Origin: a virus | DNA length: 64,000 nucleotides | IMG/VR virus record: IMGVR_UViG_3300045988_118310 | Span: 1-64,000 of that record | Reading direction: 5' to 3' (one strand) | Shown here: positions 455 to 52,650 of the stretch, one piece after another | How positions within the stretch are numbered: the stretch's first letter is position 1 | How the letters are laid out: each line of letters begins with the position of its first letter | Notes under the pieces: model-generated | What the model was told of the DNA's origin: nothing | The model's database searches: none | The model's input: only the letters and a program-made list of their open reading frames with translations | Position numbers and translations under genes: made by a program

Positions 455-1612
455 TTACTGAACCATTTTGTTGAACTCATTGGCTACATATTGTTCGTCG
501 ATGTGGCTATAGACATCGAGCGTCACATTGACTTTGCTATGACCCATCATATACTGCACTGCCTTAATATTCATTCCAGATTCAATCATTCTCGTACAAA
601 ATGTATGGCGAAAAGTATGAGGCGTGATAGAAGAAGGCAACGGATCTTGTGGATGGGTTTTGTTGTACTCTCTTATTATTCTTTTTATACTCAGGGCAAT
701 ATCAGGGGCGATTCTTGGATTATGTCGCGAAGTCACTTGAAAGAATCCGCTGTATCCATCTATGACAGGTTCTGTTGTCAGCGGTGGTCGCATTTTTATT
801 AAATGCTCAAACGCGGCTTTTGCTTTAGCTGACAATGGAACGATTCGAGTTCCTTTTTTGGTCTTTGGTGACTGAATAAATCTTTTTCCTTTTAAGTACA
901 CCAGCTGATGAGTAACACTAATTGTGTTGTTTCTAAAGTCAACATCATTTAAAGTTAATCCACAAAATTCACTTACACGAAGACCAGTTTCATATAAAAT
1001 GATAAGTTCATCAACGTATTGATAAAAATGTTTATAAGACTTACAAAACTCAATCAGATTATTGTACTGGTCCTCTGACAATATAGTCTTTGATTTTTCT
1101 TCTTTTGGAATAATTTTAGCTAATGTAAAGCCAAATGGGTTTCTTGCTATCAATCTATCATCGCATGCAAGTTCAAACGCTGGTCTTAAAAACCCCTTGA
1201 AATTACTTAGCGTTCCATAACAATACCCGCTTTCATATAATCCTTTCATAAATAACTTAGCGTCACTTGTAGTAACAGACGCGATAGATTTATTAGAAAA
1301 CGGTTCGTCTTCAAGCATGGATATAAAAGTATCTATATTTTTTGTCGAAGTTGTTTTCAGTGATAATTTATGAACGTCCGAATACCTTTTTGCAAGTTCC
1401 ATGACAGTTATAGATGTGGCAGCTAAGTCAATATTTCTTTTGTTGAGTTCTGCAATATTCTCTTTTTTGTCTCTTAGTTCTTTTAGACTACCAGCGTATA
1501 CTGTGTGTCTCTTCCCTGCTCGATCTGTCCATCGATATTGATACAGCCCATCCTTTCGCTGACTCTCACCTTCTTTTAGAACTTTTCCTTTGTTATCTTT
1601 TCTTCTTTCCAT
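455..1612 (-). CDS. int: tyrosine recombinase / phage integrase
   Basis: C-terminal catalytic region HTFRHTF...GH....VYSH (R-H-R-Y pattern); N-terminal SAM-like arm-binding region; at the end of the gene array next to repeats. Confidence 0.85.
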   Translation of the reverse strand: MERRKDNKGKVLKEGESQRKDGLYQYRWTDRAGKRHTVYAGSLKELRDKKENIAELNKRNIDLAATSITVMELAKRYSDVHKLSLKTTSTKNIDTFISMLEDEPFSNKSIASVTTSDAKLFMKGLYESGYCYGTLSNFKGFLRPAFELACDDRLIARNPFGFTLAKIIPKEEKSKTILSEDQYNNLIEFCKSYKHFYQYVDELIILYETGLRVSEFCGLTLNDVDFRNNTISVTHQLVYLKGKRFIQSPKTKKGTRIVPLSAKAKAAFEHLIKMRPPLTTEPVIDGYSGFFQVTSRHNPRIAPDIALSIKRIIREYNKTHPQDPLPSSITPHTFRHTFCTRMIESGMNIKAVQYMMGHSKVNVTLDVYSHIDEQYVANEFNKMVQ

Positions 1613-4661: not shown

Positions 4662-4959
4662 TTTGCATCACCCGCTCCTTTTCATTCCAGTGTTTGATAC
4701 CGTATTTGTCACGAACACAATTTAATCTTGCAAGGACTTCTTTATATTGCGGATTGTTTGGTTCTGTCTCGAATATAGCTGTCTCTGCTTTCCCAAGTTC
4801 TTCGTTGTATCTATAACCACCATTTCTTAGCTTCTCCCCAATGACAATCAATTCGTCATCACTTTGTACTGATTCGTCATAGATACCATTTTCATCGTAA
4901 TATTTGACACGTCTTTCTCTAAGAGGGTCCACAATTGTATAACCAAAAGCGAATCTCAT
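4648..4959 (-). CDS. hypothetical protein
   Basis: ORF downstream of dut; internal Met start (long form overlaps dut). Confidence 0.35.
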   Translation of the reverse strand: MRFAFGYTIVDPLRERRVKYYDENGIYDESVQSDDELIVIGEKLRNGGYRYNEELGKAETAIFETEPNNPQYKEVLARLNCVRDKYGIKHWNEKERVMQNVLE

Positions 4960-4978
4960 AAAACAGCCCTCCAAAATT

Positions 4979-5455
4979 TTACTTTCCAGTAGAACCAAAG
5001 CCTCCACACCCACGCTCGGTTTCATCCAGTTCATCGACCATATCAAACTGCGCTTGATAATACGGAACGAACATAAACTGTGCGATACGGTCACCATGTA
5101 CAATTTCCTGGGACGTATCAGAGTGATTGTGGAGCGGAACAAATGCTTGGCCGCGATAGTCTTCATCGATAACACAAGCTTTGTTTGCAGGAGCCAGACC
5201 TTTCTTAGTAGCCAAACCACTGCGGGCAAATCCGAGGATAGCCCAGCCTTCAGGAGGAGCAAAACGCAGACCAGTACCAATCATACGAGTGGAGTGAGGC
5301 GGAAGATAGATAATAGGGTTCCCCTGACTGTCGAACAGGTCGGCCTGATCCGCCGGGATATACGCATAAACATCAGCACAAGCGGCCTTCTCAGTGCCAT
5401 AAGTCGGAATGTGTGCATCAGGATAAATCTTGTTTACTTTTACGATAGGATTCAT
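4979..5455 (-). CDS. dut: dUTP diphosphatase
   Basis: dUTPase motifs RSG, IDEDYRG, GDRIAQ, RGCGGFGSTG. Confidence 0.85.
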   Translation of the reverse strand: MNPIVKVNKIYPDAHIPTYGTEKAACADVYAYIPADQADLFDSQGNPIIYLPPHSTRMIGTGLRFAPPEGWAILGFARSGLATKKGLAPANKACVIDEDYRGQAFVPLHNHSDTSQEIVHGDRIAQFMFVPYYQAQFDMVDELDETERGCGGFGSTGK

Positions 5456-5456
5456 A

Positions 5457-5954
5457 TTAGTTCTCCTTCCACAATACAATTTCATTCTTTTTCATACTCT
5501 GTTTGACATCGATCACTCTTTGATTGCGGCTGCCAGCCCACGGCAATGAAATATCGCGCTGGGCTTCGATATATGGACCATCCACCAGAACGTCCACATA
5601 CTTCAGGTGATTCCAATCTTTGATATCGTCCCACTCGTAGCCAGTCCACATCCAGATATCTTTGGCGTCGCCAAATTCTTTGCGGACACGCGCACAGATA
5701 TAACCGACGATGAGGCGATTCTGAACAAATAATGGGTCTCCCCCGCTGAATGTCAAACCGCGAATGTAATTTGGACGAAGCAGATCTAGCAGTTCTTGCA
5801 TTGTATCTTCGACAAATGGAATACCAGCGGCCGCGTTCCATGTAGTAGGATTCTGACAGCCGGGACAATGATGATCACAACCCTGCACGAAAAGTGTGAC
5901 GCGCACCCCTTCGCCATTTGCTATATCACAGGGAACAATTTTAGCGTAGTTCAT
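5457..5954 (-). CDS. nrdG: anaerobic ribonucleotide reductase activating protein (radical SAM)
   Basis: CDHHCPGC cluster near N-terminus; located with nrdD. Confidence 0.75.
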   Translation of the reverse strand: MNYAKIVPCDIANGEGVRVTLFVQGCDHHCPGCQNPTTWNAAAGIPFVEDTMQELLDLLRPNYIRGLTFSGGDPLFVQNRLIVGYICARVRKEFGDAKDIWMWTGYEWDDIKDWNHLKYVDVLVDGPYIEAQRDISLPWAGSRNQRVIDVKQSMKKNEIVLWKEN

Positions 5955-8942: not shown

Positions 8943-9161
8943 TTACTTACCTCGGCTACCCTTAATGAATCGTTCCAGAAAAACTAGAGCCAGCCAGATG
9001 CCTGTCGCCACTTTAACGGTAAAAGTGATATTCAGCAGCTTAAAAATCAGCCAAATAATACCAATCGTGATAATCCACGAGGTAAAATATGTAGCTGCCA
9101 GAATCAGAACGATTCCCAGAAAAAAACCAAGTGCCTTAAAGAAATTTTTCCATGCGTTCAA
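8943..9161 (-). CDS. small two-TM membrane protein
   Basis: 72 aa with two hydrophobic helices. Confidence 0.35.
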   Translation of the reverse strand: MNAWKNFFKALGFFLGIVLILAATYFTSWIITIGIIWLIFKLLNITFTVKVATGIWLALVFLERFIKGSRGK

Positions 9162-9265: not shown

Positions 9266-11467
9266 TTAATTGTCGCTCAAATGAACCACTCGATCTCGAA
9301 TTTCCTGAGTGCGCCCCTGATTCCAAAAATTGGTTCCCAGGTAACCACAAGTACGTCTTACGACATTCATTTTGTTCTGGTCACGATTACCACAATTCGG
9401 GCACTCCCATATAAGCTTGTGGTTTTTCTCATCTTCTACAATTTTAATTTCGCCGTCGTAGCCGCAGCACTGGCAGTAGTCGGACTTGGTGTTCAGCTCC
9501 GCATACATGATGTTGTCGTAAATGAACTGCATAACACTAAGCACCGCAGGAATGTTCTGCTGCAGATTTGGCACCTCGATATAGCTAATCGCCCCTCCTG
9601 GAGAAAGCTTCTGGAACTCGCTCTCAAACTTTAGCTTAGTGAAAGCATCGATATGTTCACGGACAACGACATGATAAGAATTTGTTACGTAGTCATGGTC
9701 AGTAATATCTGGAATCATACCAAACCGCTTCTGCAAGCAACGTGCAAATTCATATGTAGTGGACTCCAAAGGAGTACCATACAGAGAGTAATCGATGTTT
9801 TCAGCGGCCTTCCACTCGTTACACTTATCATTCATGTGCCGCATAATTTCGAGAGCAAAAGGTTTAGCATCAGGATCGGTGTGGCTCTTGCCGGTCATAT
9901 ACTTCACACACTCATACAGACCGGCATAACCCAGGCTGATGGTGGAGTAGCCGCCGAAGAGCAACTTGTCGATCTTCTCGCCCTTCTTTAGACGAGCTAA
10001 TGCACCGTACTGCCACAGGATAGGGGCCATATCAGAAGAAGTGCCGAGTAGACGCTTGTGACGAATCTGTAGAGCTCGATGACACAATTCGAGTCGTTCA
10101 TCGAAGATTTTCCAGAATTTATCCTTGTCCCCTTCTGAACTGCAAGCCACGTCCACCAGATTGATGGTCACGACGCCCTGATTGAAGCGGCCATAATACT
10201 TATGCCCCTTAACCCAATTCTTGGCACTAGCTACGTTCTCAGTGGTGCGGTCAGGAGTAAGGAAGGATCTACAGCCCATGCTAGGCCACACACCGCCTTT
10301 AAGCTCCTTCATAACCTTTGCGGAAATATAATCAGGAACCATTCGCTTGGCAGTACACTTAGCTGCCAGCTCAGTCAGGTAATAATACTTAGAATCAGAA
10401 TGAATGTTATCCTCATCAAGAGCATAAATGAGCTTTGGGAAGGCCGGAGTGACCCATACACCAACTTCATTCTTTACACCCTGAATGCGCTGTTTTAACA
10501 CTTCTTCAACAATTAGAGCCAAATCATCACGAGTTTGACCTTCTGGAACTTCATCGAGGTACATAAACACGGTGATAAAAGGGGCCTGGCCGTTTGTCGT
10601 CATCAAAGTGACAACCTGATACTGGATGGTCTGCACGCCACGAGCAATTTCTTTATGTAAACGATCTTCTACAATTCGATTGATAGTTTCAGACTCCGGC
10701 ATCTTATCGATTTCATTATTCTGAACCATCTCGTAAAATTCTTGGTGTACTTCACTTGTGATCTTCTTGCGGGAAACATCTACGAATGGAGCCAGATGTG
10801 AAAGTGTAATACTCTGACCTCCAAATTGCATCGAAGCTACCTGTGCAATGATCTGGGTGGCAATGTTGCAGGCGGTGGAAAAGCTGTGAGGTTTTTCAAT
10901 ATAGGTGCCGGAGATGACGGTGCCGTTCTGGAGCATATCTTCAAGATTGACCAGATCGCAATTATGGCAGTGCATCACAAAATAATCTTTATCATGCACA
11001 TGAATTAAACCACTTTTGTGTGCATCTCGGATATCCTTTGGAAGTAGAAGTCTGTCAGTTAGTTCCTTAGATACCTCTCCGGCCATGTAATCACGTTGCG
11101 TGCTATTGATGGTTGCGTTCTTATTACTGTTTTCCTGATTGATTGCGTCGTTCTGGGCATCAAGAATTTCAAGAATACTTGCGTTGGTTTTCTCTTTATC
11201 TCGAATTTCCTGACGATACTGCCGCCACTGACTATATGCATTTGCAACGTCAATAAACGGGCTATTTGCTAGACTGTCCACTACGATATCCTGAATCTGC
11301 TCAACAGAAAGAATGCCCGGCATGTCTGCGATATAGTCAGCAATCGCATTCGACACACGAGCGTCGATACTACCCGGTGTACAGGTCATCGCCTTCTCGA
11401 CTGCATTCACAATCTTACTTTTATCAAAAGGGACTTCCGTTCCATCGCGTTTAATCACATATTCCAT
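9266..11467 (-). CDS. nrdD: anaerobic ribonucleoside-triphosphate reductase (class III)
   Basis: 733 aa, ATP-cone-like N-terminus, C-terminal glycyl-radical motif RRTCGYLG and Zn-ribbon CCGYDG...CPNCG. Confidence 0.85.
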   Translation of the reverse strand: MEYVIKRDGTEVPFDKSKIVNAVEKAMTCTPGSIDARVSNAIADYIADMPGILSVEQIQDIVVDSLANSPFIDVANAYSQWRQYRQEIRDKEKTNASILEILDAQNDAINQENSNKNATINSTQRDYMAGEVSKELTDRLLLPKDIRDAHKSGLIHVHDKDYFVMHCHNCDLVNLEDMLQNGTVISGTYIEKPHSFSTACNIATQIIAQVASMQFGGQSITLSHLAPFVDVSRKKITSEVHQEFYEMVQNNEIDKMPESETINRIVEDRLHKEIARGVQTIQYQVVTLMTTNGQAPFITVFMYLDEVPEGQTRDDLALIVEEVLKQRIQGVKNEVGVWVTPAFPKLIYALDEDNIHSDSKYYYLTELAAKCTAKRMVPDYISAKVMKELKGGVWPSMGCRSFLTPDRTTENVASAKNWVKGHKYYGRFNQGVVTINLVDVACSSEGDKDKFWKIFDERLELCHRALQIRHKRLLGTSSDMAPILWQYGALARLKKGEKIDKLLFGGYSTISLGYAGLYECVKYMTGKSHTDPDAKPFALEIMRHMNDKCNEWKAAENIDYSLYGTPLESTTYEFARCLQKRFGMIPDITDHDYVTNSYHVVVREHIDAFTKLKFESEFQKLSPGGAISYIEVPNLQQNIPAVLSVMQFIYDNIMYAELNTKSDYCQCCGYDGEIKIVEDEKNHKLIWECPNCGNRDQNKMNVVRRTCGYLGTNFWNQGRTQEIRDRVVHLSDN

Positions 11468-11478
11468 GTAATCACCTC

Positions 11479-13002
11479 TTACTCAGCATCCTGCGCATCG
11501 TTCTTTTCAGAAACAATCGTCGAATCGCTTACAAGGTTCACATTCTTAGTGACCTTTGCATCGTAACTGTTGGCACGGACAATTTCCTTCATATCAATGC
11601 CAGTTGCTTCACGAACGGCCTCAAAAGTCTGAGCCATGACTGCTGGGACATTGCCGGAAATCTCAGAAACACCATTTGCGTTACTGCCAATGATGGAAAC
11701 CTTGTCAATGGACGCCAGCGGCTTTGCAACCTCAGCTGCAATGCTAGGAAGAATCTTAATGATCATTTCACCCATAGCCGCACCATTGTACTGCTTGTAA
11801 GCTTCGGCCTTCTTCAGCATAGCTTCTGCTTCAGCAAGACCCTTCTGCCTGATGGCCTCAGCTTCCGCCATGCCAACCATACGGATGCCTTCTGCCTCCT
11901 GTTCCTTAGCGAACTTTGCGGATTCTGCAGAACGCTCTGCTTCGTACTTCTTTGCTTCAGCTTCCTTCTGACGCTTATACAGGTCGGCGTCTGCCTGCTT
12001 GCGAATCTCCGCATCCAGCTTTTGCTGACGAACTTCTGCTTCCTGAGCGGCCAACTCAACCATCTTCTTCTGCTTTGCAATAGCTGCGTCAGCTTCAGCT
12101 TCCTTAATTTCCTTATCACGCAGATTCATTTGAATCTCACCAGCAGCTTCTGCATCAGCATTTGCCTTATCAGCCTCCGCCTTCAGAGCGGCCTGAGTCA
12201 GAAGATACTCATTGTTGCGCTGTGCAATAGCGGTCTTGGATTCAATTTCCTTTTCATTTGATTCACGAGCAGTATCCGCCTTAGCACGAGCAATATCACG
12301 AGCGGCTTCGGCCTTAGCAATCTCTGCCTGTTTCTTCACCAGCTCTTCCTGCTGAACACCAATTGCCTCAATGACACCATGATTATGACCCTGAGCATCA
12401 ATAGCATCCTTAATATCCTGAACATTGAAAGTAACAACTTCCAGACCCATCTTTGCTAAATCAGGACGAGCATTCTCAACAACGGAAATTGCCATCTGTT
12501 TACGATTGGTCAGGATATCATTGACAGTCATCTCAGAAACAATCTCTCGCAGATTGCCCTGAAGGACATCGTTGATCTTTTCGTTAATGCCATCTTCACT
12601 CATGCCAAGGAAGTTGGAAATAGCAGCCTGCTGACGAGCACTAATATAAGTCTTTGCATCCTCACAACCGGCACTCTTAATCTCATCATCAGTTACAGTA
12701 GAGTTCTCAGAGTAAACCTGAACAGTAACAACAGAGTCCAGCCACAGAGAAACACCCTCTTTAGTCTTTACACCGGTTTCAGGAGTCTTGACATCAATCT
12801 TGAGCAATCGCATATTCAGACGGTCAGCTCGCTGAATAACCGGAAGGACGAACACGCCACGACCACAGATAACTTTCGGCTTAGACAGTCCAAAACCTGT
12901 TACGACGATTGCCTGAGTAGGAGGAGCCTTCTTATAGCAAGTAAATGCAAAGGCGATCAGAAAGACAACAACGACAGGAATTGCAATAAACATCATATTC
13001 AT
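11479..13002 (-). CDS. flotillin-like SPFH/band-7 protein
   Basis: N-terminal TM segment, SPFH core (AIVVTGFG...VLPVIQRADRLNMRL) and long Ala/Glu/Lys-rich coiled-coil, as in YqiK/FloT. Confidence 0.75.
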   Translation of the reverse strand: MNMMFIAIPVVVVFLIAFAFTCYKKAPPTQAIVVTGFGLSKPKVICGRGVFVLPVIQRADRLNMRLLKIDVKTPETGVKTKEGVSLWLDSVVTVQVYSENSTVTDDEIKSAGCEDAKTYISARQQAAISNFLGMSEDGINEKINDVLQGNLREIVSEMTVNDILTNRKQMAISVVENARPDLAKMGLEVVTFNVQDIKDAIDAQGHNHGVIEAIGVQQEELVKKQAEIAKAEAARDIARAKADTARESNEKEIESKTAIAQRNNEYLLTQAALKAEADKANADAEAAGEIQMNLRDKEIKEAEADAAIAKQKKMVELAAQEAEVRQQKLDAEIRKQADADLYKRQKEAEAKKYEAERSAESAKFAKEQEAEGIRMVGMAEAEAIRQKGLAEAEAMLKKAEAYKQYNGAAMGEMIIKILPSIAAEVAKPLASIDKVSIIGSNANGVSEISGNVPAVMAQTFEAVREATGIDMKEIVRANSYDAKVTKNVNLVSDSTIVSEKNDAQDAE

Positions 13003-13018
13003 GTATTTTTCTCCTTGA

Positions 13019-13114
13019 TTATCTTAAAACAAATTTGGCAAAGCCAAAAATCAACATTGTAACAAACAGGGCAAATGCCGCAAATGGTTCTTCCCAGTTG
13101 TATCTCATTCTCAT
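13019..13114 (-). CDS. 31-aa hydrophobic micropeptide upstream of the flotillin gene
   Basis: ATG ORF MRMRYNWEEPFAAFALFVTMLIFGFAKFVLR; its TAA is followed by the flotillin RBS. Confidence 0.25.
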   Translation of the reverse strand: MRMRYNWEEPFAAFALFVTMLIFGFAKFVLR

Positions 13115-13127
13115 TTATGTAAACCTC

Positions 13128-13568
13128 TTAAAACTTGACCTCATCGGCACAATCAGGGACCACGGCAGTTTCGATGTTTGGAGCATGGATTTCTGGACAG
13201 AAAACCAAATCATCCGTATAGTCGGGCTTTGCATGACGAGGAATGTAATCCGACATCGTAGTCAGCTTATCAGTTACCTCGTTAGGGACTTTCTTGAGCG
13301 TATCTACGACACTTTCAGCAACCTTCTGCTGTTCCTCTAAAAGCCGGATTTTATAGTCCAAATACCAACGTGCCTTCGTCAAATCTTGAAGCTGAGAATT
13401 GCCATCTTTGTGACCTGCCCGGCTCAGATACTTACCAACATTCCAAAGATAAGCATCCTTGTCTAACTGCCACTCCCGTAGCACTTTGATTGCCTCATAG
13501 GGATTGTCTGCACCGCCGTAATAAGACGGGTGCTCGACGTTCTTCTTGATTTCGTCAAGTGTTTGCAT
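13128..13568 (-). CDS. DUF3310-like phage protein
   Basis: HPSYYGG...PYEAIKVLREW motif characteristic of the DUF3310 family. Confidence 0.45.
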   Translation of the reverse strand: MQTLDEIKKNVEHPSYYGGADNPYEAIKVLREWQLDKDAYLWNVGKYLSRAGHKDGNSQLQDLTKARWYLDYKIRLLEEQQKVAESVVDTLKKVPNEVTDKLTTMSDYIPRHAKPDYTDDLVFCPEIHAPNIETAVVPDCADEVKF

Positions 13569-14271
13569 CAATAACCTCCTTGTTTTTTTCAATAGGCTTA
13601 TAAACATCTGCCAACCGAGGATGACGGCCACAGCAGCCACGACCTTCTGGACAGAACGGATACTTCGGATTAGCCTCACAGGAAGGAACCATCCAGTTTG
13701 CTACTTCAGGACAAACCTGTGCAACTTCCTTCTTCATTTCTGTGAACATCTCGCGGATTTCTTTTTGAGCCCTAGAACAAAGTCGAAGATGACTCATCTC
13801 AATCAAAGCACGAGCGTTCATCGTGATGTAGAATTCTGTACAGCAAGCATTTGGCAGAACTGCACGAGCGTCTTCGTTTTTGGCATTATGATACTTCTTG
13901 AGAATCTGATAATCGGTATCAATGTCCGACATCATATTATCGAAAACATCAGCATCTTCACCGGTAAACGGATTTACATACTTGAATCCATCCTCGCTGC
14001 AATAACGCTGGCTGCGGCAGCTCATGCTAATATGTCGATGACGACTAATCTGTGCCAGAAGTGCGCGACTCACATCTTTGACATAGAACGTAAAGTTGAT
14101 GTGTTCAAGCACAGAATAATGACCGCTGGCCTTACATCCCTTAGCAATCTTATAATCGTCAGTCATTGAAGAATCATAACAAATACTCGCAGCTTCCTCT
14201 ACAATATCTAAAGGATTCTTATCATTTGTAGGAACAACTCGCTGTGTGTACGCAATCAAATCAACAGTCAT
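13555..14271 (-). CDS. thyX: flavin-dependent thymidylate synthase
   Basis: ThyX signature RHRHISMSCRSQRY. Confidence 0.85.
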   Translation of the reverse strand: MTVDLIAYTQRVVPTNDKNPLDIVEEAASICYDSSMTDDYKIAKGCKASGHYSVLEHINFTFYVKDVSRALLAQISRHRHISMSCRSQRYCSEDGFKYVNPFTGEDADVFDNMMSDIDTDYQILKKYHNAKNEDARAVLPNACCTEFYITMNARALIEMSHLRLCSRAQKEIREMFTEMKKEVAQVCPEVANWMVPSCEANPKYPFCPEGRGCCGRHPRLADVYKPIEKNKEVIDANT

Positions 14272-37882: not shown

Positions 37883-37963
37883 TGGTGGGACATGTCGGAC
37901 TTGAACCGTGATACATATGCTCAGTTATGAGCTGAGTTCTCTAACCAATTGAGATAATGTCCC
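37883..37963 (-). tRNA. tRNA-Met/Ile2-like (anticodon CAT), CCA encoded; T-stem imperfect
   Basis: acceptor GGGACAT/ATGTCCC, D-stem TCTC/GAGA, anticodon stem CTCAG/CTGAG loop CTCATAA; GGTTCAAGTCC T-arm. Confidence 0.55.
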
Positions 37964-38094
37964 ATAAAAACCAGTTAAATAGCTGCAACTATTCAACTGG
38001 GCACCTTCCTTATAAAACGCTATTGCATCTATATCATATAGACGAGGAAGGAATAACAGCGATGCACATTTCCTATATCTCGCCCCTTTCGGGG

Positions 38095-38152
38095 TGGTAT
38101 CTCGCACAGGCGCGGCCAGATCTGACCGCCAAAGATCCTACCCATACGAGAT
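38095..38152 (-). ncRNA. 57-nt tRNA-minihelix-like element ending in CCA, directly after tRNA-Gly
   Basis: TCTCGTA/TGCGAGA terminal pairing, internal AGATCT palindromes, ends ...TACCA followed by a CCCCGAAAGGGG hairpin. Confidence 0.3.
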
Positions 38153-38227
38153 TGGAGCAGCGAAAGGTAGTCGAAACCTCATCCTCAGCTTGGAAGGCTG
38201 ATGTACTAGCCGTTGTACGACCGCCGC
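38153..38227 (-). tRNA. tRNA-Gly (anticodon TCC), CCA encoded
   Basis: cloverleaf: acceptor GCGGCGG/TCGCTGC (2 GU), D-stem GTAC/GTAC, anticodon loop CTTCCAA, T-arm GAGGT-TTCGACT-ACCTT. Confidence 0.7.
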
Positions 38228-38233
38228 ATGAAA

Positions 38234-38284
38234 ACCCAGCTTACAAAACACTACTGCACCATCACTGGCGAGCTGGGAATAATA
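38234..38284 (-). repeat. R1: conserved ~50-nt inverted-repeat spacer element (CCCAGCT...AGCTGGGAATAAT) upstream of tRNA-Gly
   Basis: shares acccagcttac...cactgc...gagctgggaataat with R2. Confidence 0.4.
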
Positions 38285-38328
38285 GTGGTCAAAGGAGTTC
38301 AACCATGAACAACAACGATTCATGACCG

Positions 38329-38410
38329 TGGTGCGGATAGTGGGCATCGAACCCACACGCCGAAGCACCAGATCCTAAATCTGGCGTGTCTGCCATTCCA
38401 CCATATCCGC
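38329..38410 (-). tRNA. tRNA-Leu (anticodon TAG), long variable arm, CCA encoded
   Basis: acceptor GCGGATA/TATCCGC, anticodon loop TTTAGGA, variable arm TGCTTCGGCGTG, T-arm GTGGG-TTCGATG-CCCAC. Confidence 0.75.
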
Positions 38411-38415
38411 ATAAA

Positions 38416-38486
38416 TTGCGCCAACAGGGGTCGAACCTGTGATGGAGGAGTCAAAGTCCTCTGCCTTACCGCTTGGCGATGGCGCA
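38416..38486 (-). tRNA. tRNA-Gln (anticodon TTG), no encoded CCA
   Basis: acceptor TGCGCCA/TGGCGCA (U1-A72 as in bacterial tRNA-Gln), anticodon stem GAGGA/TCCTC loop CTTTGAC, T-arm ACAGG-TTCGACC-CCTGT. Confidence 0.7.
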
Positions 38487-38495
38487 TCATATACC

Positions 38496-38549
38496 CAGCT
38501 TACTACGCCACACTGCTCCGTTTCCAGAGAGCTGGGAATAATGTGAATG
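38496..38549 (-). repeat. R2: second copy of the inverted-repeat spacer element, upstream of tRNA-Gln
   Basis: tacccagcttac...cactgctcc...gagctgggaataat. Confidence 0.4.
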
Positions 38550-38571
38550 AAAAATTCTACATGCCCTTTCG

Positions 38572-38647
38572 GGCTGGTCCGAGTGACAGGTCATGATCCT
38601 GCGGCCTCATGTTCCCAAAACACGCGCTCTTCCAACTGAGCTACACC
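38572..38647 (-). tRNA. tRNA-Pro (anticodon TGG), CCA encoded, atypical T-loop
   Basis: acceptor CCGGGTG/CACTCGG, D-arm GCTC-AGTTGGAA-GAGC, anticodon loop TTTGGGA, T-loop ATCATGA. Confidence 0.55.
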
Positions 38648-38654
38648 CGGATAT

Positions 38655-38741
38655 AAATGCCACCGAGGAGAGTTGAACTCCTAATCTCTTACGAGCGTTC
38701 CGGTTTAAGCGGAAAGTGTATGCCATTTCCACCACGGTGGC
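38655..38741 (-). tRNA. tRNA-Leu (anticodon TAA), long variable arm, no encoded CCA
   Basis: acceptor GCCACCG/CGGTGGC, anticodon stem TTCCG/CGGAA loop CTTAAAC, T-arm AGGAG-TTCAACT-CTCCT. Confidence 0.7.
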
Positions 38742-38821
38742 ACATCAACACTGTCTGTCCAGCAGTCAACCGTCTTTCCGATTTTGCCAATATTCTAGCA
38801 CTTGCCCATCTGCAAATGGGT

Positions 38822-38900
38822 TGGTAGCCCTACTCAGATTTGAACTGAGAATTTTACAAGGTTTGAGCTTGTTGCGTATGCCTAATTCCGCCATAGGGCC
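38822..38900 (-). tRNA. tRNA of uncertain identity (anticodon CAA, short variable arm, large D-loop), CCA encoded
   Basis: acceptor GGCCCTA/TAGGGCT, anticodon stem ACAAG/CTTGT loop CTCAAAC, T-arm CTCAG-TTCAAAT-CTGAG. Confidence 0.5.
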
Positions 38901-38967: not shown

Positions 38968-41178
38968 TTATTCGTGCCGATTCTCATAGAATTCATTCCG
39001 AAGCTGAATGATGTTCTTTTTGCAGAACGATTCGTGATCGGCATCATTCTGTTGTCTCATCCATCCGTAGAAGTTGTTGTCTTCTGCGGTGAACAATTTT
39101 GAGGTGTGTTCGTAGTATCCACGCTTTTGAACGCTCTGCATAACACTACGCAAGAATTTCCAGTGCTTATAGCAAGGAAGCTTCAGCTTAAACATGAAAT
39201 TGTTGTTATCTCTCAAAACAAAGCCTTCAACGTGTTTAAAGCCATGATGCAGATAGTTCTCGTTCATGACTTCCTCGTACCAAGGATAGAATTCACGCCA
39301 GTTCTCAAAGGTCTTAACCTTCTCCTTAATCTGCAGATGACACTTCTCGGCTACACGCTTCAAATCATCATAATCCATTACACTGAAATTCATATCATTT
39401 GCAATAATATCCAGCAAAACAACGTGCGGTTTCTTATATTCGATGATATGCGCATCATTCACAGGATCAATCACCTCGAAGATGATGGAGCCATTCTCTT
39501 TTGCAAATTCTTTCAGATTCTTACGGTCTTCATCAGAAGTCGTATCCATGAGAATCTTTCGAAACATATCTGCAAAAGGCCCTTCAGGAGTGGATTTACT
39601 TGCAATGAACAGACTATCCTGTTCTGCATCATACGAAATGATACCAAGAAATCCGTTCTCTTTTAGATATGCAGTCACCGGGAACTTCAAAGTGTTCTGT
39701 AGGTTTCCAATTCTCGTTTCATTCCGCTCATCAACCGCAAAGAACTTATCATAGCTTCGAGCTACAATCTTATTCGTCTTTGTGTTAATGAACAATCCCC
39801 TTGCTTTGGTAGAAACCTCATCCCAGTGCTTCTTATAAAATGCTTCACGAGAGAAGTTGAAAGAAGAAATATCTCCGAATCGCTTCTCAAACACATATTT
39901 GCTTTGACGCATCTTACTAACAAGTTCTGCGTTATCGAACTCAGTTTTCAGTTCAACGACAGTTTCAGTCTTTGGCTCCTCTTTTTGGAACACATCGTTC
40001 TTGGTTTCTACACACTTGATTGACTGACCGTGTTCAAGTTCCACGCAACGAAGATATCCACCAAACTCGATTTTTCCTTCGAGGTTGTAGCACTGATGCC
40101 CCATATCAATAGGAACATCCTGCACATTTCGATGTCCAAAGATTTGGAAACATCCGTCAGGCATCTTTTGTTCCCATGACTCTGCGACAGTGAGCATGTC
40201 AGAGTAGCGGCCAACACCCTTTACCATCTGGTCAGTAGACACGAACGGTAGAAATTCAGGCAAATAACTCAAACCACCATGGCTAACGAAGTATCTTTTA
40301 TCATCGTAATCAAAATAGGAGCACTGTCCTACTCTTGAATAGACCTTACGAGCCGTATTATGGTCAATCCCTGCTTTAAAAAGCTGCGGACGAGTGTAGT
40401 TTGTAAATTCCTCACTCTGAACCGGCTCGTCATGACCCCACTTGTTTAGCCACCGTTCATGATTTCCTTCAAGGAGAATTACATTCTTCCGATTATTGTC
40501 TACAACATCACAAAGGAACTTGAACATCTCTACATTTTCAATTCCACGATCCAGATAATCGCCAACAAAAATGTACAGCTCATCGTCCTTCAGGTCTCCA
40601 AGGTACTCTTTCAGGCAACTGTAGCATCCATGCACATCACCGATGATATGAATTTTGCTCCAATTATTAAAATCCTGCGGAACATAGTTCAATTTTTCAA
40701 GGACATTGACATCCGACGAAAGCACAGTCACTCCAGACGGAATTTTTTGTGTTGCGAATCGTGCATACATCTTATCAATGACAGCATCTGGAACTCTCTT
40801 CAGTGGGGCACGGAGCGAATTGCGCCGCTTGCACTCATCAATCGGCAAGCCCGTCATGTCAATGATGTACATTCTGTACCTGTACTGCTTGGCGAGGTTC
40901 TTGTAGCGATTGATTTCGACCGTTTTAGAATTCGTTGCATCGATCACGGTGAACTCACCATGAGACATCCGAACCTCCAACAGCTTAAAGAGCATATCCC
41001 AGACAACATCATCGTTCTGGGGAGAGATTTCCATTGTGCCAGCCGGGGTTTCCTGACCACCCTGGCACATAAGACGAATCGTATCTGCACTAAGCGTATA
41101 CTTTTCCAGATCATGCTCTTTAATATAGGGGGACTTCCCGCATCCGGGTGCTCCACGGAAAAGAAGCAAAGTTCTCAT
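38968..41178 (-). CDS. Pnkp-like polynucleotide kinase - metallophosphatase - ligase (RNA repair enzyme)
   Basis: P-loop GAPGCGKS + VIDATN (kinase); GDVHG, GDYLDRG, GNHE (calcineurin-like phosphatase); KENG, FEVID, EGFVL, FKLK (nucleotidyltransferase ligase motifs I, III, IV, V). Confidence 0.75.
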   Translation of the reverse strand: MRTLLLFRGAPGCGKSPYIKEHDLEKYTLSADTIRLMCQGGQETPAGTMEISPQNDDVVWDMLFKLLEVRMSHGEFTVIDATNSKTVEINRYKNLAKQYRYRMYIIDMTGLPIDECKRRNSLRAPLKRVPDAVIDKMYARFATQKIPSGVTVLSSDVNVLEKLNYVPQDFNNWSKIHIIGDVHGCYSCLKEYLGDLKDDELYIFVGDYLDRGIENVEMFKFLCDVVDNNRKNVILLEGNHERWLNKWGHDEPVQSEEFTNYTRPQLFKAGIDHNTARKVYSRVGQCSYFDYDDKRYFVSHGGLSYLPEFLPFVSTDQMVKGVGRYSDMLTVAESWEQKMPDGCFQIFGHRNVQDVPIDMGHQCYNLEGKIEFGGYLRCVELEHGQSIKCVETKNDVFQKEEPKTETVVELKTEFDNAELVSKMRQSKYVFEKRFGDISSFNFSREAFYKKHWDEVSTKARGLFINTKTNKIVARSYDKFFAVDERNETRIGNLQNTLKFPVTAYLKENGFLGIISYDAEQDSLFIASKSTPEGPFADMFRKILMDTTSDEDRKNLKEFAKENGSIIFEVIDPVNDAHIIEYKKPHVVLLDIIANDMNFSVMDYDDLKRVAEKCHLQIKEKVKTFENWREFYPWYEEVMNENYLHHGFKHVEGFVLRDNNNFMFKLKLPCYKHWKFLRSVMQSVQKRGYYEHTSKLFTAEDNNFYGWMRQQNDADHESFCKKNIIQLRNEFYENRHE

Positions 41179-43797: not shown

Positions 43798-44724
43798 TTA
43801 ATTTTTATGGAAATATTCGACCCAACCTTTGTATCCTTGTCTGAAGCTAATGTAGGCAACCTTGCTACACTTTCTTCCGATAATGTCTGCAAGAGGGTCT
43901 TTACCATTTCCGAAACTAAGTTCTGCAAGATTAAATTCTGGATTATTCTTACAGTAGTCGTAGACCTTCACGTATTCGCCGTTTCTGGTTAGATGCCTTC
44001 GATCTAAAGCCTTTGAGTGATATCTTTTTTCGAGGATGTTATTCAACCGCATAAAATAGGTATGAATTGTATGCACAGACATCTTTGGGTCACTGTCTGC
44101 ACCGATACTATCCTCGGTTTTACGAATGATGTAATCACCATTCATGACATAGAATGCCCTATACCCTCCCTTATTGGGAGCGTCATACTGTTTCATTTCA
44201 TAACACTGCTTAATAATATCCATCAACTTTGCATCAACACCTGTCTTATCAAGAACAGTACAAGATTCAAAATCGACATCGTTAATCGTCAGGTTAGAAA
44301 CTTCTTCAGAAGTAAGGCCAATCCAGTACAGTGCAGCAATCACGTTCATACGAATCTGATATGGCTCTTCATACTTATTTAAGAAGTCAACAAACTCATC
44401 AACTGATGCAAAGTATTTATCCGCATACATATTGTCTGCGCTTACATCGCTCTCTGAAAAGTCAGCCAGATCATACATGCTTGTTTTGTTTTCGCTTTTG
44501 ATGTAGCCTGTGATTATTGACTTCACATTTTTAAACGAACGACTCGAGTTCACCCAATTATATTTGGCAAACATCTTTACGAAATCATCTTTTGTGAAGT
44601 CAAACAACTCATACCCACGCTCAGCCTCGTAACCCAGAACATGGTTAAGCGTCGATACAACAAACTCACCGCTTCTATCAGAATACTTTTCAGCAAAAGC
44701 TTTGATCTTTTCTTCAGTAAGCAT
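43798..44724 (-). CDS. divergent tyrosine-recombinase-like protein
   Basis: box-I-like RMNVIAALYWIGLTSEEVSNLTINDVDF; C-terminal region with His/Arg/Tyr but non-canonical spacing. Confidence 0.35.
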   Translation of the reverse strand: MLTEEKIKAFAEKYSDRSGEFVVSTLNHVLGYEAERGYELFDFTKDDFVKMFAKYNWVNSSRSFKNVKSIITGYIKSENKTSMYDLADFSESDVSADNMYADKYFASVDEFVDFLNKYEEPYQIRMNVIAALYWIGLTSEEVSNLTINDVDFESCTVLDKTGVDAKLMDIIKQCYEMKQYDAPNKGGYRAFYVMNGDYIIRKTEDSIGADSDPKMSVHTIHTYFMRLNNILEKRYHSKALDRRHLTRNGEYVKVYDYCKNNPEFNLAELSFGNGKDPLADIIGRKCSKVAYISFRQGYKGWVEYFHKN

Positions 44725-51810: not shown

Positions 51811-52650
51811 TCAGTCTTCCAAGCTGTGTGTATTCACACCATAAAAAGTCTTCTTATAATATTCTTTTGCCTTATCCTCATCAAAACCAACGTACCGTAA
51901 TGTAATATCCTGACTACTATGATTCAACTGACCCTGAATCCAAGACAATGCCTGGTTATCATCCTTATTAAGACACATCTCACGATAACCAAATGTCTTA
52001 CGGCAAGAATGAGATGCAATCTTATAATTAAGACCCAAATCTTTGCCAGCGTTACGAAGAATACGAGCAAAAGAATCAACATCAATAGGATCACCGGCCT
52101 TTTTGGGTTCTGCAATATGAGGAATACCAGTTTTCCCATCTCCACCATTTGTCCTCAACGACTTTTTCCAGCTCCCCTGCCGAGACGGAAACATCCAATC
52201 GTCATATCCAAGTTTCGCAATCTTAATATATGTTTCAACAATATCCCTCGCTTCTGGAGTAAGGATGATTTCTCGATACTTGGACGTTTTTTCTTCAACG
52301 ATACACACTCCAGCGTCTTCAACCACTTCAATTTTTCCATTATAAAGGCAATAAGACATATCGGAAACTTTCAATTTGAGTAAATCACTAGCACGTAACC
52401 CGGTTGCGATACCTACGTTAAATAGACACCAATTGCGATATTGCTTTTTATCCCAGAAGTATTCCGAAATCATTTGAACATCATCCAAGCTTCTAATTGG
52501 AGAAATATTACGCTTACGCTTCTGCTTACTTCTTGTAACACCACGTTTTTTAGCCGGAACAGAAGGTTTCGGATTAAAATAAATCAATTTAGGTATCTGT
52601 TCTTCTTTTCTTTCAACAACTGCGCTCATTATATTCACCTCAAACTCCAT
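51811..52650 (-). CDS. small tyrosine recombinase (Xer/phage-integrase family)
   Basis: box I GLRASDLLKLKVSDM, box II HSCRKTF...LNHSSQDITLRY. Confidence 0.7.
   Translation of the reverse strand: MEFEVNIMSAVVERKEEQIPKLIYFNPKPSVPAKKRGVTRSKQKRKRNISPIRSLDDVQMISEYFWDKKQYRNWCLFNVGIATGLRASDLLKLKVSDMSYCLYNGKIEVVEDAGVCIVEEKTSKYREIILTPEARDIVETYIKIAKLGYDDWMFPSRQGSWKKSLRTNGGDGKTGIPHIAEPKKAGDPIDVDSFARILRNAGKDLGLNYKIASHSCRKTFGYREMCLNKDDNQALSWIQGQLNHSSQDITLRYVGFDEDKAKEYYKKTFYGVNTHSLED

Follow-up and report, generated by a model that had tools for sequence, protein, structure and literature searches.

The 64,000 nucleotides (nt) analysed here, referred to throughout as the window, are positions 1 to 64,000 of the IMG/VR virus record IMGVR_UViG_3300045988_118310. 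Within them lies a gene for a flotillin, a protein of the SPFH superfamily, directly preceded by a 31-residue hydrophobic open reading frame (ORF) that we call the mini-ORF. Flotillins are archetypal scaffolds of bacterial membrane microdomains, and an earlier reading of this sequence, hereafter the original prediction, had proposed that the pair represents a phage flotillin and a small membrane partner. Our analysis makes it probable that the flotillin is a selected gene of a prophage, housed in a slot that other members of the same phage clade fill with a LemA gene and a second gene, X, and that the mini-ORF is a by-product or leader created at the recombination junction. What is new here is the prophage and host context, the existence of three states of the slot, the strong selection acting on the flotillin, and the composite origin of the mini-ORF. 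The minus strand carries every long ORF of the window. The features of the locus, with lengths in amino acids (aa) where relevant, are the following.

9266-11467, minus strand: NrdD, anaerobic ribonucleotide reductase (Pfam NRDD, 3.9e-192, with ATP-cone and Gly_radical); right border of the variable slot
11479-13002, minus strand: flotillin gene, 507 aa, ATG start (ORF list and raw sequence); accessory gene of the prophage
11647-12360, minus strand: Ala/Glu/Lys-rich helical (coiled-coil) region of the flotillin, aa ~215-430 (predicted helices; aligns with the flotillin-1 coiled coil)
12304-12930, minus strand: SPFH/Band_7 domain of the flotillin, aa 25-233 (PF01145, 70.3 bits versus a cutoff of 23.6)
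12934-13002, minus strand: N-terminal hydrophobic anchor of the flotillin, aa 1-23, MNMMFIAIPVVVVFLIAFAFTCY (sequence; helix 3-23 in a low-confidence model)
13011-13016, minus strand: Shine-Dalgarno sequence of the flotillin, AAGGAG, 8 nt 5' of the ATG at 13002-13000 (raw sequence)
13017-13093, minus strand: T-rich 77-nt segment encoding the rest of the mini-ORF (EEPFAAFALFVTMLIFGFAKFVLR, then the stop); no counterpart in the related contig L012
13019-13114, minus strand: 31-aa hydrophobic mini-ORF, MRMRYNWEEPFAAFALFVTMLIFGFAKFVLR, ATG start (ORF list); read here as a recombination-junction ORF
13094-13127, minus strand: head of the mini-ORF, ribosome-binding site (RBS) AAGAGG and ATG AGA TAC AAC TGG (alignment to L012); start of LemA
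13128-13568, minus strand: DUF3310 gene, 146 aa (Pfam PF11753); left border of the variable slot
13555-14271, minus strand: ThyX, upstream of the DUF3310 gene

The 507-aa protein and the 31-aa ATG-initiated ORF upstream of it are both present exactly as the original prediction stated. Its remark that the stop of the mini-ORF abuts the flotillin RBS is accurate: 2 nt separate the TAA (13021-13019) from AAGGAG, and 13 nt separate this stop from the flotillin ATG. The mini-ORF has a second in-frame ATG at 13108. At the other end of the flotillin gene, NrdD starts 11 nt past the stop. The flotillin does lie inside the nucleotide-metabolism and replication block of the phage, as proposed; its placement between nrdD and the thymidylate genes gave the right neighbours, but omitted the DUF3310 gene that stands between ThyX and the mini-ORF, and that is likewise called as 146 aa in related contigs. 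The mini-ORF had been described as unannotated, which is not strictly so: gene calls in ENA assemblies include exactly this sequence, and nr lists it under the entry 'MAG TPA: hypothetical protein [Caudoviricetes sp.]'.

The architecture foreseen for the 507-aa protein, a transmembrane (TM) anchor followed by an SPFH core and a long coiled coil, is borne out by Pfam, NCBIfam and alignment to Protein Data Bank (PDB) entries. The hidden Markov model search suggested at the outset matched both expected families above their gathering scores and well outside what chance would give, Band_7 at 2.7e-19 and Flot (PF15975) at 3.4e-8, the latter over aa 374-452 with 34 bits against a cutoff of 27. The best PDB matches are human flotillin-1 (E 5e-49, residues 27-489) and then flotillin-2. 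Residues 1-23 form a predicted membrane anchor before the SPFH domain, and the KKAPP motif that follows the anchor is present in all flotillin homologues compared. The NCBIfam FloT model (NF058507) aligned over positions 5-474 of its 477; because the score of 256 bits falls below the equivalog cutoff of 700, the protein is not considered an orthologue of Bacillus subtilis FloT. An AlphaFold model, obtained from a shallow alignment, comprises a helix at 3-23, a mixed alpha/beta region, and helices at 215-329 and 337-430; only its secondary structure was used, because the mean predicted local distance difference test score is 53.6. The order of anchor, SPFH domain, Ala/Glu-rich coiled coil and Flot domain is that of bacterial flotillins (B. 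subtilis FloT/YuaG, Escherichia coli YqiK) and of eukaryotic flotillin-1 and flotillin-2, and from its sequence we classify the protein as a genuine full-length flotillin (SPFH superfamily, flotillin subfamily). Unlike the bacterial flotillins, it is encoded on a prophage, inside a nucleotide-metabolism block.

The flotillin gene is under strong purifying selection, which argues that the phage uses it. The 14 phage haplotypes compared differ by 326 synonymous changes but only 58 non-synonymous ones (codon positions 43/19/322), giving a ratio of non-synonymous to synonymous polymorphism (pN/pS) of 0.05 for the whole gene and of 0.01 for the SPFH domain (aa 31-230). Thousands of proteins match this flotillin, and the best matches outside the phage clade are 75-79% identical and fall into two groups. 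One consists of high-GC (0.56-0.63) chromosomal loci of Oscillospiraceae, including those of a Subdoligranulum variabile metagenome-assembled genome, of Clostridium sp. TM06-18 and of a 3.4-Mb contig. The closest chromosomal flotillins found, 78-79% identical to the phage protein, belong to these related high-GC Oscillospiraceae, and the loci have their own promoter-like leader and no adjoining NfeD or LemA gene. The other group consists of mid-GC (0.46-0.50) loci, which match another series of large viral contigs in IMG/VR, 68-389 kb long. In a neighbor-joining tree, the clade of the window forms a separate branch of this tight flotillin family. The GC content of the phage gene is 0.47, on a phage background of ~0.40, and that of the bacterial genes is 0.59-0.63; the partial amelioration, together with the synonymous divergence, indicates that the capture is not recent and that the gene has since been kept by selection. 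Its 90%-identity cluster contains 300 member sequences from many samples.

Two observations were made on the loci of these relatives. Several high-GC bacterial loci (L246, L253, L249, L256 and others) have in common a conserved stretch ~110 nt ahead of the flotillin start. It comprises a TATAAT box, then an inverted repeat (CATCATCAGC...GCTGATGA) and, before the RBS, a second GC-rich hairpin, and could act as a leader that regulates the chromosomal flotillin. The mid-GC viral or mobile contigs (L292-L307, L036-L040, L204-L225), whose flotillins are 76-78% identical to that of the window, are rich in ORFans, carry RNase H and a CobS-like AAA ATPase nearby and have varied, non-membrane genes upstream of the flotillin; one protein cluster of this group is present on at least 1000 contigs.

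To survey the position occupied by the flotillin, we searched IMG/VR with the flotillin itself and with the two genes that replace it in a variant genome. Three states of the segment between DUF3310 and NrdD were found. In state 1 (74 IMG/VR contigs), the order is LemA-X-NrdD, with X directly before NrdD and no flotillin. In state 2, represented by the IMG/VR contig L012 and the metagenome contig L203, it is LemA-X-flotillin-NrdD. State 3 is that of the window, of 12 IMG/VR contigs and of several ENA and Logan contigs, with the order mini-ORF-flotillin-NrdD. Only ~15% of the IMG/VR genomes of the clade carry a flotillin. The slot LemA has 185 aa (PF04011, 1e-33; phrog_1383), and protein X has 244 aa, TM helices at both ends and a match to phrog_3886 (4e-68), with no Pfam family; neither is found elsewhere in the 64-kb window. 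The LemA-X pair and the flotillin are unrelated in sequence and fold, but both are membrane-anchored with helical cytoplasmic parts and take the same genomic position. The LemA family PF04011 takes in the magnetosome protein MamQ, which is needed for magnetosome membrane formation; the slot LemA gives a weak match to the MamQ model (1.7e-20, below the model's cutoff). The possibility of a conserved bacterial operon joining LemA and flotillin was examined and dropped. The genes occur in a row, as LemA-X-Y-flotillin, in one isolate genome, Clostridium sp. TM06-18 (lineage L005/L006), where LemA and X share only 53% and 41% identity with their phage counterparts; LemA does not adjoin the flotillin at any of 76 non-clade metagenomic loci.

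The region around the slot is itself a mosaic, because NrdD and ThyX are replaced in many members of the clade by alleles that are only 26-34% identical. Syntenic genomes (L047-L120) carry NrdD versions that are either 26-28% or 80-90% identical, and a ThyX version that is ~34% identical, which suggests that alleles have often been exchanged throughout the nucleotide-metabolism block. The NrdD of L012 (7536-10610) is 1024 aa long versus 733 aa; it contains an insert of ~290 aa, starting after ...HNC, that resembles an intein or homing-endonuclease insertion.

In some relatives, a further small ORF with a single TM segment, which we call sTM1, lies between DUF3310 and LemA or the mini-ORF. It is 28 aa long (MRNENDTYLIFAIFFFIVAPGLALMAFR), with the variants MKNENNTYLAFVVFFCIVVPILASMVFR and, of 32 aa, MRKNDDWNYLLASAMFFIAGAIVEIMVRIFHW, and was found at L046 (~4903-4989, equal to L012), L081, L013, L054-L056 and L016/L019. 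Its substitutions are of the coding type, with 7 synonymous differences (Sd), 3 non-synonymous differences (Nd), codon positions 1/2/7 and a pairwise pN/pS of 0.31 (range 0.11-0.31).

The junctions were mapped by nucleotide alignment of the window with L012, together with the junction sequences of states 1, 2 and 3. Homology between the window and L012 covers the end of DUF3310, the RBS and ATG AGA TAC AAC TGG, stops after ATGAGATACAACTGG, and resumes at the flotillin RBS. The same start is found in L012 and in all state-1 genomes, where it is the N-terminus of LemA (MRYNWKLP...). The mini-ORF uses the RBS and the first five codons of LemA but is otherwise not LemA, with no match to PF04011. 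The left junction is identical in all state-3 haplotypes, and the flotillin ORF fits precisely between the stop of X (TAAGGAG) and the RBS of NrdD. At the start of the mini-ORF, the window has a 6-nt tandem duplication, ATGAGA-ATGAGA (13103-13114, minus strand), which results in an MRMR start; other haplotypes have a single copy or ATGAGATACACGAGATAC, and the N-termini read MRMRYNW, MRYNW or MRYTRYNW. This variation of the start codon is of the slippage type.

The most economical history would be a single replacement, in which LemA from codon 6 through to the X stop was swapped for the 77 nt plus flotillin, followed by diversification. The state-2 flotillin is 98.4% nt-identical to two state-3 haplotypes, and state-3 haplotypes are 87-99% identical to one another; because its flotillin is nested within state-3 diversity, state 2 is best seen as a later recombinant with a state-1 phage and not as the ancestor. 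Other origins were tried and rejected. A simple deletion remnant of LemA-X does not account for the mini-ORF, as the 77 nt are absent from the LemA-X-flotillin allele, whose flotillin is nested in state 3. No similarity was found between the 77 nt, or the peptide tail, and the C-terminus of the bacterial upstream gene Y or other upstream genes. Nor did blastn-short and tblastn detect a paralogue of either sequence, whether elsewhere in the window or among ~320 other loci.

We then considered whether the mini-ORF could be a counterpart of the NfeD proteins, as the original prediction proposed. Several SPFH operons contain an NfeD partner: YuaF with FloT, YqeZ with FloA, and YbbJ with QmcA. Like these partners, the mini-ORF lies immediately upstream of an SPFH gene, on the same strand, and is predicted to be membrane-embedded. 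NfeD proteins have several TM helices and a C-terminal OB-fold domain (PF01957), and are conserved across taxa (PMC13086221). The mini-ORF, unlike them, has one hydrophobic stretch, no domain, no homologues and no coding-type conservation, and with only 31 residues it cannot hold an NfeD domain. No NfeD gene adjoins the phage flotillin, and the closest chromosomal homologues are likewise without an adjacent NfeD.

Homologue searches with the mini-ORF remained within the phage clade. None of Pfam, NCBIfam, PHROG and PADLOC gave a match. When 5.8 billion proteins were queried through a word index with the 31-aa sequence, padded with X, the search returned only four clusters of 29-32 aa, all from the clade, and an exhaustive phmmer search of 1.84 billion protein representatives returned the mini-ORF itself only. 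A scan of IMG/VR with a degenerate DNA pattern gave the clade and one chance match, L030. Upstream of flotillins 75-79% identical to that of the window, the mini-ORF is absent at 80 metagenomic loci and on 16 further viral contigs, and in the state-2 allele the flotillin is intact without it. The comparison with NfeD partners thus does not hold: the mini-ORF has neither an NfeD domain nor a homologue outside the clade, it is missing from more than 90 other flotillin loci, and the idea is further contradicted by the LemA-derived start and by a non-coding substitution pattern. Conservation in related phages, named beforehand as a check, turned out to be limited to one phage clade, with a pN/pS of 0.78 and with frameshifted and truncated variants.

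This substitution pattern was established on the ~16 haplotypes of the clade to which the mini-ORF is confined. Over 27 shared codons, Sd is 4 and Nd is 12, with codon positions 4/7/5. The ratio of non-synonymous to synonymous rates (omega) fits 1 (P 0.78), excludes values of 0.1 or less (P 1e-4) and disfavours 0.3 (P 0.07). Matched controls from the same phage population, by contrast, show the pattern of genes, with a pN/pS of 0.13 for LemA, 0.19 for X and 0.20 for the TM codons 1-30 of LemA (positions 6/4/20). The frame is shifted at codon 8 in the L015 haplotype, and a 1-nt deletion alters and shortens the C-terminus in L003, L004, L011 and L026. That the replacements look conservative is no more than chance would produce, since in such T-rich codons only 12-17% of the possible non-synonymous changes would create a charged residue, a proline or a stop. 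Nucleotide diversity (pi) in the mini-ORF region is 0.038, flat over codon positions; in the flotillin, third positions have a pi of 0.235, falling to 0.067 (pi3) in the first 90 nt. The mini-ORF region has no Rfam family and no stable fold (z +1.43), its RNA being less structured than 186 of 200 shuffles. Promoter and terminator consensus sequences are no more frequent in this region than in shuffled controls, and only weak elements were seen there (a 6-bp hairpin with a T-run and a 9/12 promoter-like site).

From its sequence and distribution, the mini-ORF is most likely a junction by-product or leader, in which the RBS and five codons of LemA read into the T-rich 77 nt. Several points weigh against this reading. 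The frame is intact in 15 of the 16 distinct haplotypes and is served by a functional RBS, inherited from LemA, 9 nt before the ATG, which makes translation into a hydrophobic peptide probable. An omega of ~0.3 is only weakly disfavoured, since the test rests on 16 substitutions. The region is ~5-fold less diverse than flotillin third codon positions (0.038 vs 0.235), so that either its nucleotide sequence is under some constraint or it arose later than most of the diversity in the flotillin; the peptide could have a function in addition to such constraint. Small membrane peptides are not alien to the locus, as sTM1 in the same slot looks selected. Smith-Waterman comparison with the 250 nt preceding every flotillin homologue revealed no donor for the 77 nt, and for this reason we can only infer that the segment was imported together with the flotillin. 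As regards the slot, the functional link between the LemA module and the flotillin is weak, because their adjacency is seen in only one bacterial lineage.

Two alternatives concern the nature of the mini-ORF. It might be a genuine small membrane partner of the flotillin, an NfeD analogue that may nucleate or regulate its oligomers. The single clean hydrophobic segment of ~21 residues and the good inherited RBS speak for such a role, as do the operon-like and possibly coupled distance of 13 nt to the flotillin ATG, the open frame in nearly all haplotypes (15/16) in a region more conserved than neutral sites, the gene calls in ENA and the apparent selection on other small TM ORFs of the slot. 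We nevertheless hold it to be unlikely, given that the mini-ORF belongs to no NfeD or other family, has no homologue outside the clade and stands beside no other flotillin; the LemA-X-flotillin genome keeps its flotillin without it, it lacks codon periodicity at a pN/pS of 0.78, frameshifted and truncated forms exist, and the conservative replacements are those that T-rich codons give by chance (12-17% disruptive). Somewhat less doubtful, though still tentative, is the view that the 77 nt are chiefly a non-coding, unstructured, U-rich 5' leader or translation-initiation region, the ORF being incidental or serving to deliver ribosomes by coupling. Diversity that is low and flat over codon positions, in a trough that takes in the flotillin's first 90 nt (pi3 0.067), is what such a leader would display, and the low RNA structure (186/200 shuffles), the stop immediately 5' of the flotillin RBS and the fact that T-richness automatically yields Phe/Leu/Ile/Val-rich codons are in line with it. 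On the other hand, the LemA-X-flotillin allele has the same flotillin RBS without the 77 nt, neither an Rfam family nor a promoter or terminator signal stronger than in shuffles was detected, and a more recent common origin of the junction explains the low diversity equally well.

The part that the flotillin plays can be outlined by homology. Solved flotillin, HflK/C and QmcA-YbbJ assemblies serve as models for the SPFH cage, and hetero-oligomers of paralogues are common among SPFH proteins. The phage flotillin would insert through its N-terminal anchor into the host membrane, and its SPFH domain and coiled coil would drive oligomerisation. The product would be a cage or microdomain scaffold facing the cytoplasm, an assembly deduced from the solved flotillin-1/2 complexes (PDB 9l3g, 9bq2). 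Should the host possess a flotillin of its own, the two may assemble jointly; such mixed complexes are plausible because chromosomal relatives are 78-79% identical and SPFH paralogues commonly hetero-oligomerise. Whether in the lysogen or in the lytic cycle, the membrane and its client proteins would be rearranged or stabilised by the scaffold, and this membrane-level role would overlap that of the displaced LemA-X pair. That the alternative cargo LemA is also membrane-bound fits a slot devoted to membrane organisation.

A different role is conceivable, in which the flotillin, like LemA-X, is a competition gene in a hot spot, acting in superinfection exclusion, membrane defence or counter-defence; it might, for example, block the entry of rival phage DNA or neutralise membrane-targeting abortive-infection effectors. 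Consistent with this are the alternative membrane cargos in syntenic genomes, the swapping of the neighbouring NrdD and ThyX alleles, the position of the slot ~10 kb from the integrase end of the prophage, and the presence of the same flotillin family on another large viral contig group (L292-L307, 76-78% identity). We find this doubtful: no PADLOC model matches the flotillin, LemA or X, the literature retrieved gave no link between SPFH proteins and phage defence, and the gene is co-directional in an operon-like nucleotide-metabolism block instead of forming a moron unit with its own promoter and terminator. It is highly improbable that the flotillin is a recent passenger gene without function for the phage. 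Its host-like sequence (75-79% identity) and its restriction to ~15% of the IMG/VR genomes of the clade would suit a passenger, but the alleles have diverged by up to 13% at the nucleotide level with nearly all changes synonymous (pN/pS 0.05; SPFH 0.01), the GC content of the gene is partly ameliorated (0.47), and the 300 members of its 90%-identity cluster come from many samples.

In its boldest form, which we judge unlikely, the idea of a selected flotillin in the LemA-X slot extends to a dedicated membrane-remodelling slot, with swappable cargos, either LemA (MamQ-like) plus phrog_3886 or flotillin, accompanied by single-TM peptides, that would rewire the host membrane, including co-assembly with the host flotillin and recruitment of the mini-ORF as a newborn micro-protein. 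If this were true, co-assembly with a host flotillin (presumed ~78% identical) would capture or reshape host microdomains to the advantage of phage or lysogen, with membrane proteases, cell-envelope synthesis and rival phage entry as possible targets. 

Syntenic prophages with a flotillin, with the LemA pair or with both constitute a natural experiment in a highly abundant human gut genus, and what a virus gains from a membrane scaffold is testable through these natural variants or engineered lysogens. The mini-ORF is also a caution: recombination across T-rich DNA is able to produce what looks like a tidy hydrophobic micropeptide, complete with an RBS and placed right against the following gene.

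The assignment of the flotillin to a prophage rests on the end of the element, which is marked in the window by one gene.

455-1612, minus strand: tyrosine integrase (phrog_1, 1.9e-64); prophage end, ~10 kb from the flotillin

Contigs with that exact integrase (L317, 9736-15199; L319, 639-12061) have Tn916-type Xis and Int at the element end and, past them, the host genes guaB, pncB, phoH, ybeY, era, recO and mutS2, with a GC jump across the junction from 0.39-0.41 on the phage side to 0.58 on the chromosome. The flanking host Era is 98% identical to one unnamed cluster and 90% identical to the Era of Faecalibacterium. Pfam families of SPbeta Yom/Yon structural proteins were found on one contig (L320). 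IMG/VR contigs of the element are ~125-141 kb long, with the flotillin 8-22 kb from one end. Taken together, these data identify the element as an SPbeta-like temperate phage of ~125-140 kb, integrated beside guaB in a Faecalibacterium-like host, the window corresponding to the integrase-proximal arm of the prophage. The mini-ORF is present on contigs of 374-706 kb because the element is integrated in a bacterial chromosome; a jumbo phage or a concatemer was considered for these contigs and dropped, as the host genes and the GC break explain them. The replication genes of the window include a DnaE-type polymerase, helicases, primase, RecJ, ligase and an RNA ligase/kinase (PHROGs, Pfam), and the window also encodes seven tRNAs, NrdD, NrdG, dUTPase, FolD and ThyX. 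There is no close cultured relative, the best polymerase match being Clostridium phage Amboise (47%), and a megablast search with 7 kb matched only two unannotated gut fragments.

The original prediction regarded a membrane-microdomain scaffold in a phage replication module as unusual. This is right as far as rarity goes: a tblastn search of 50,697 deposited phage records found a relative in 10, several of them short fragments. However, phage csAssE-Sib already has an annotated 'flotillin family protein', among replication genes, MT835492 carries another, and IMG/VR contains at least four further viral lineages with flotillins of 28-78% identity. A phage flotillin is thus uncommon but not new as a kind. 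PHROG 200 groups SPFH-like phage 'lipoproteins', for example that of phage GIB1, and a 2026 paper on this phage noted the SPFH gene and called the reason for its carriage unclear (PMC13239085). Literature on phage flotillin, on SPFH proteins in defence and on LemA in phages yielded passing mentions only. The csAssE-Sib, MT835492 and GIB1-type genes resemble that of the window in being SPFH or flotillin genes of tailed-phage genomes, and the csAssE-Sib gene, too, has a small membrane protein encoded ahead of it; this upstream protein (164 aa) is not supported as an NfeD by Pfam, NCBIfam or PDB. The flotillins of csAssE-Sib, MT835492 and other phage SPFH proteins are only 27-37% identical to that of the window, and none is accompanied by the mini-ORF; these other phage-borne genes are independent acquisitions. 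As for defence, PADLOC gave no match for the flotillin, the mini-ORF, DUF3310, LemA, X or Y.

Further observations concern other genes of the window. FolD (1874-2701), dUTPase (4979-5485), NrdG (5457-5954), NrdD (9266-11467) and ThyX (13555-14271), all on the minus strand, together form a self-contained module for the anaerobic supply of deoxythymidine monophosphate and deoxynucleoside triphosphates, in which FolD would provide the methylene-tetrahydrofolate for ThyX. Just downstream of NrdD, a 72-aa ORF with two hydrophobic segments (8943-9161, minus strand) is called as a gene in related contigs too (L317, 2452-2670), and has no family beyond a sub-threshold MAPEG match. Two more integrase- or recombinase-like genes lie far from the element end, at 51811-52650 (minus strand; phrog_216, 2.2e-42) and 43798-44724 (minus strand; phrog_5830, 3.8e-11). 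The seven tRNA genes (Met, Gly, three Leu, Gln, Pro) are clustered at 37883-38900 on the minus strand, directly adjoined by a 736-aa polynucleotide kinase/phosphatase-RNA ligase fusion (phrog_8238; 38968-41178, minus strand), an arrangement that suggests a tRNA supply-and-repair unit.

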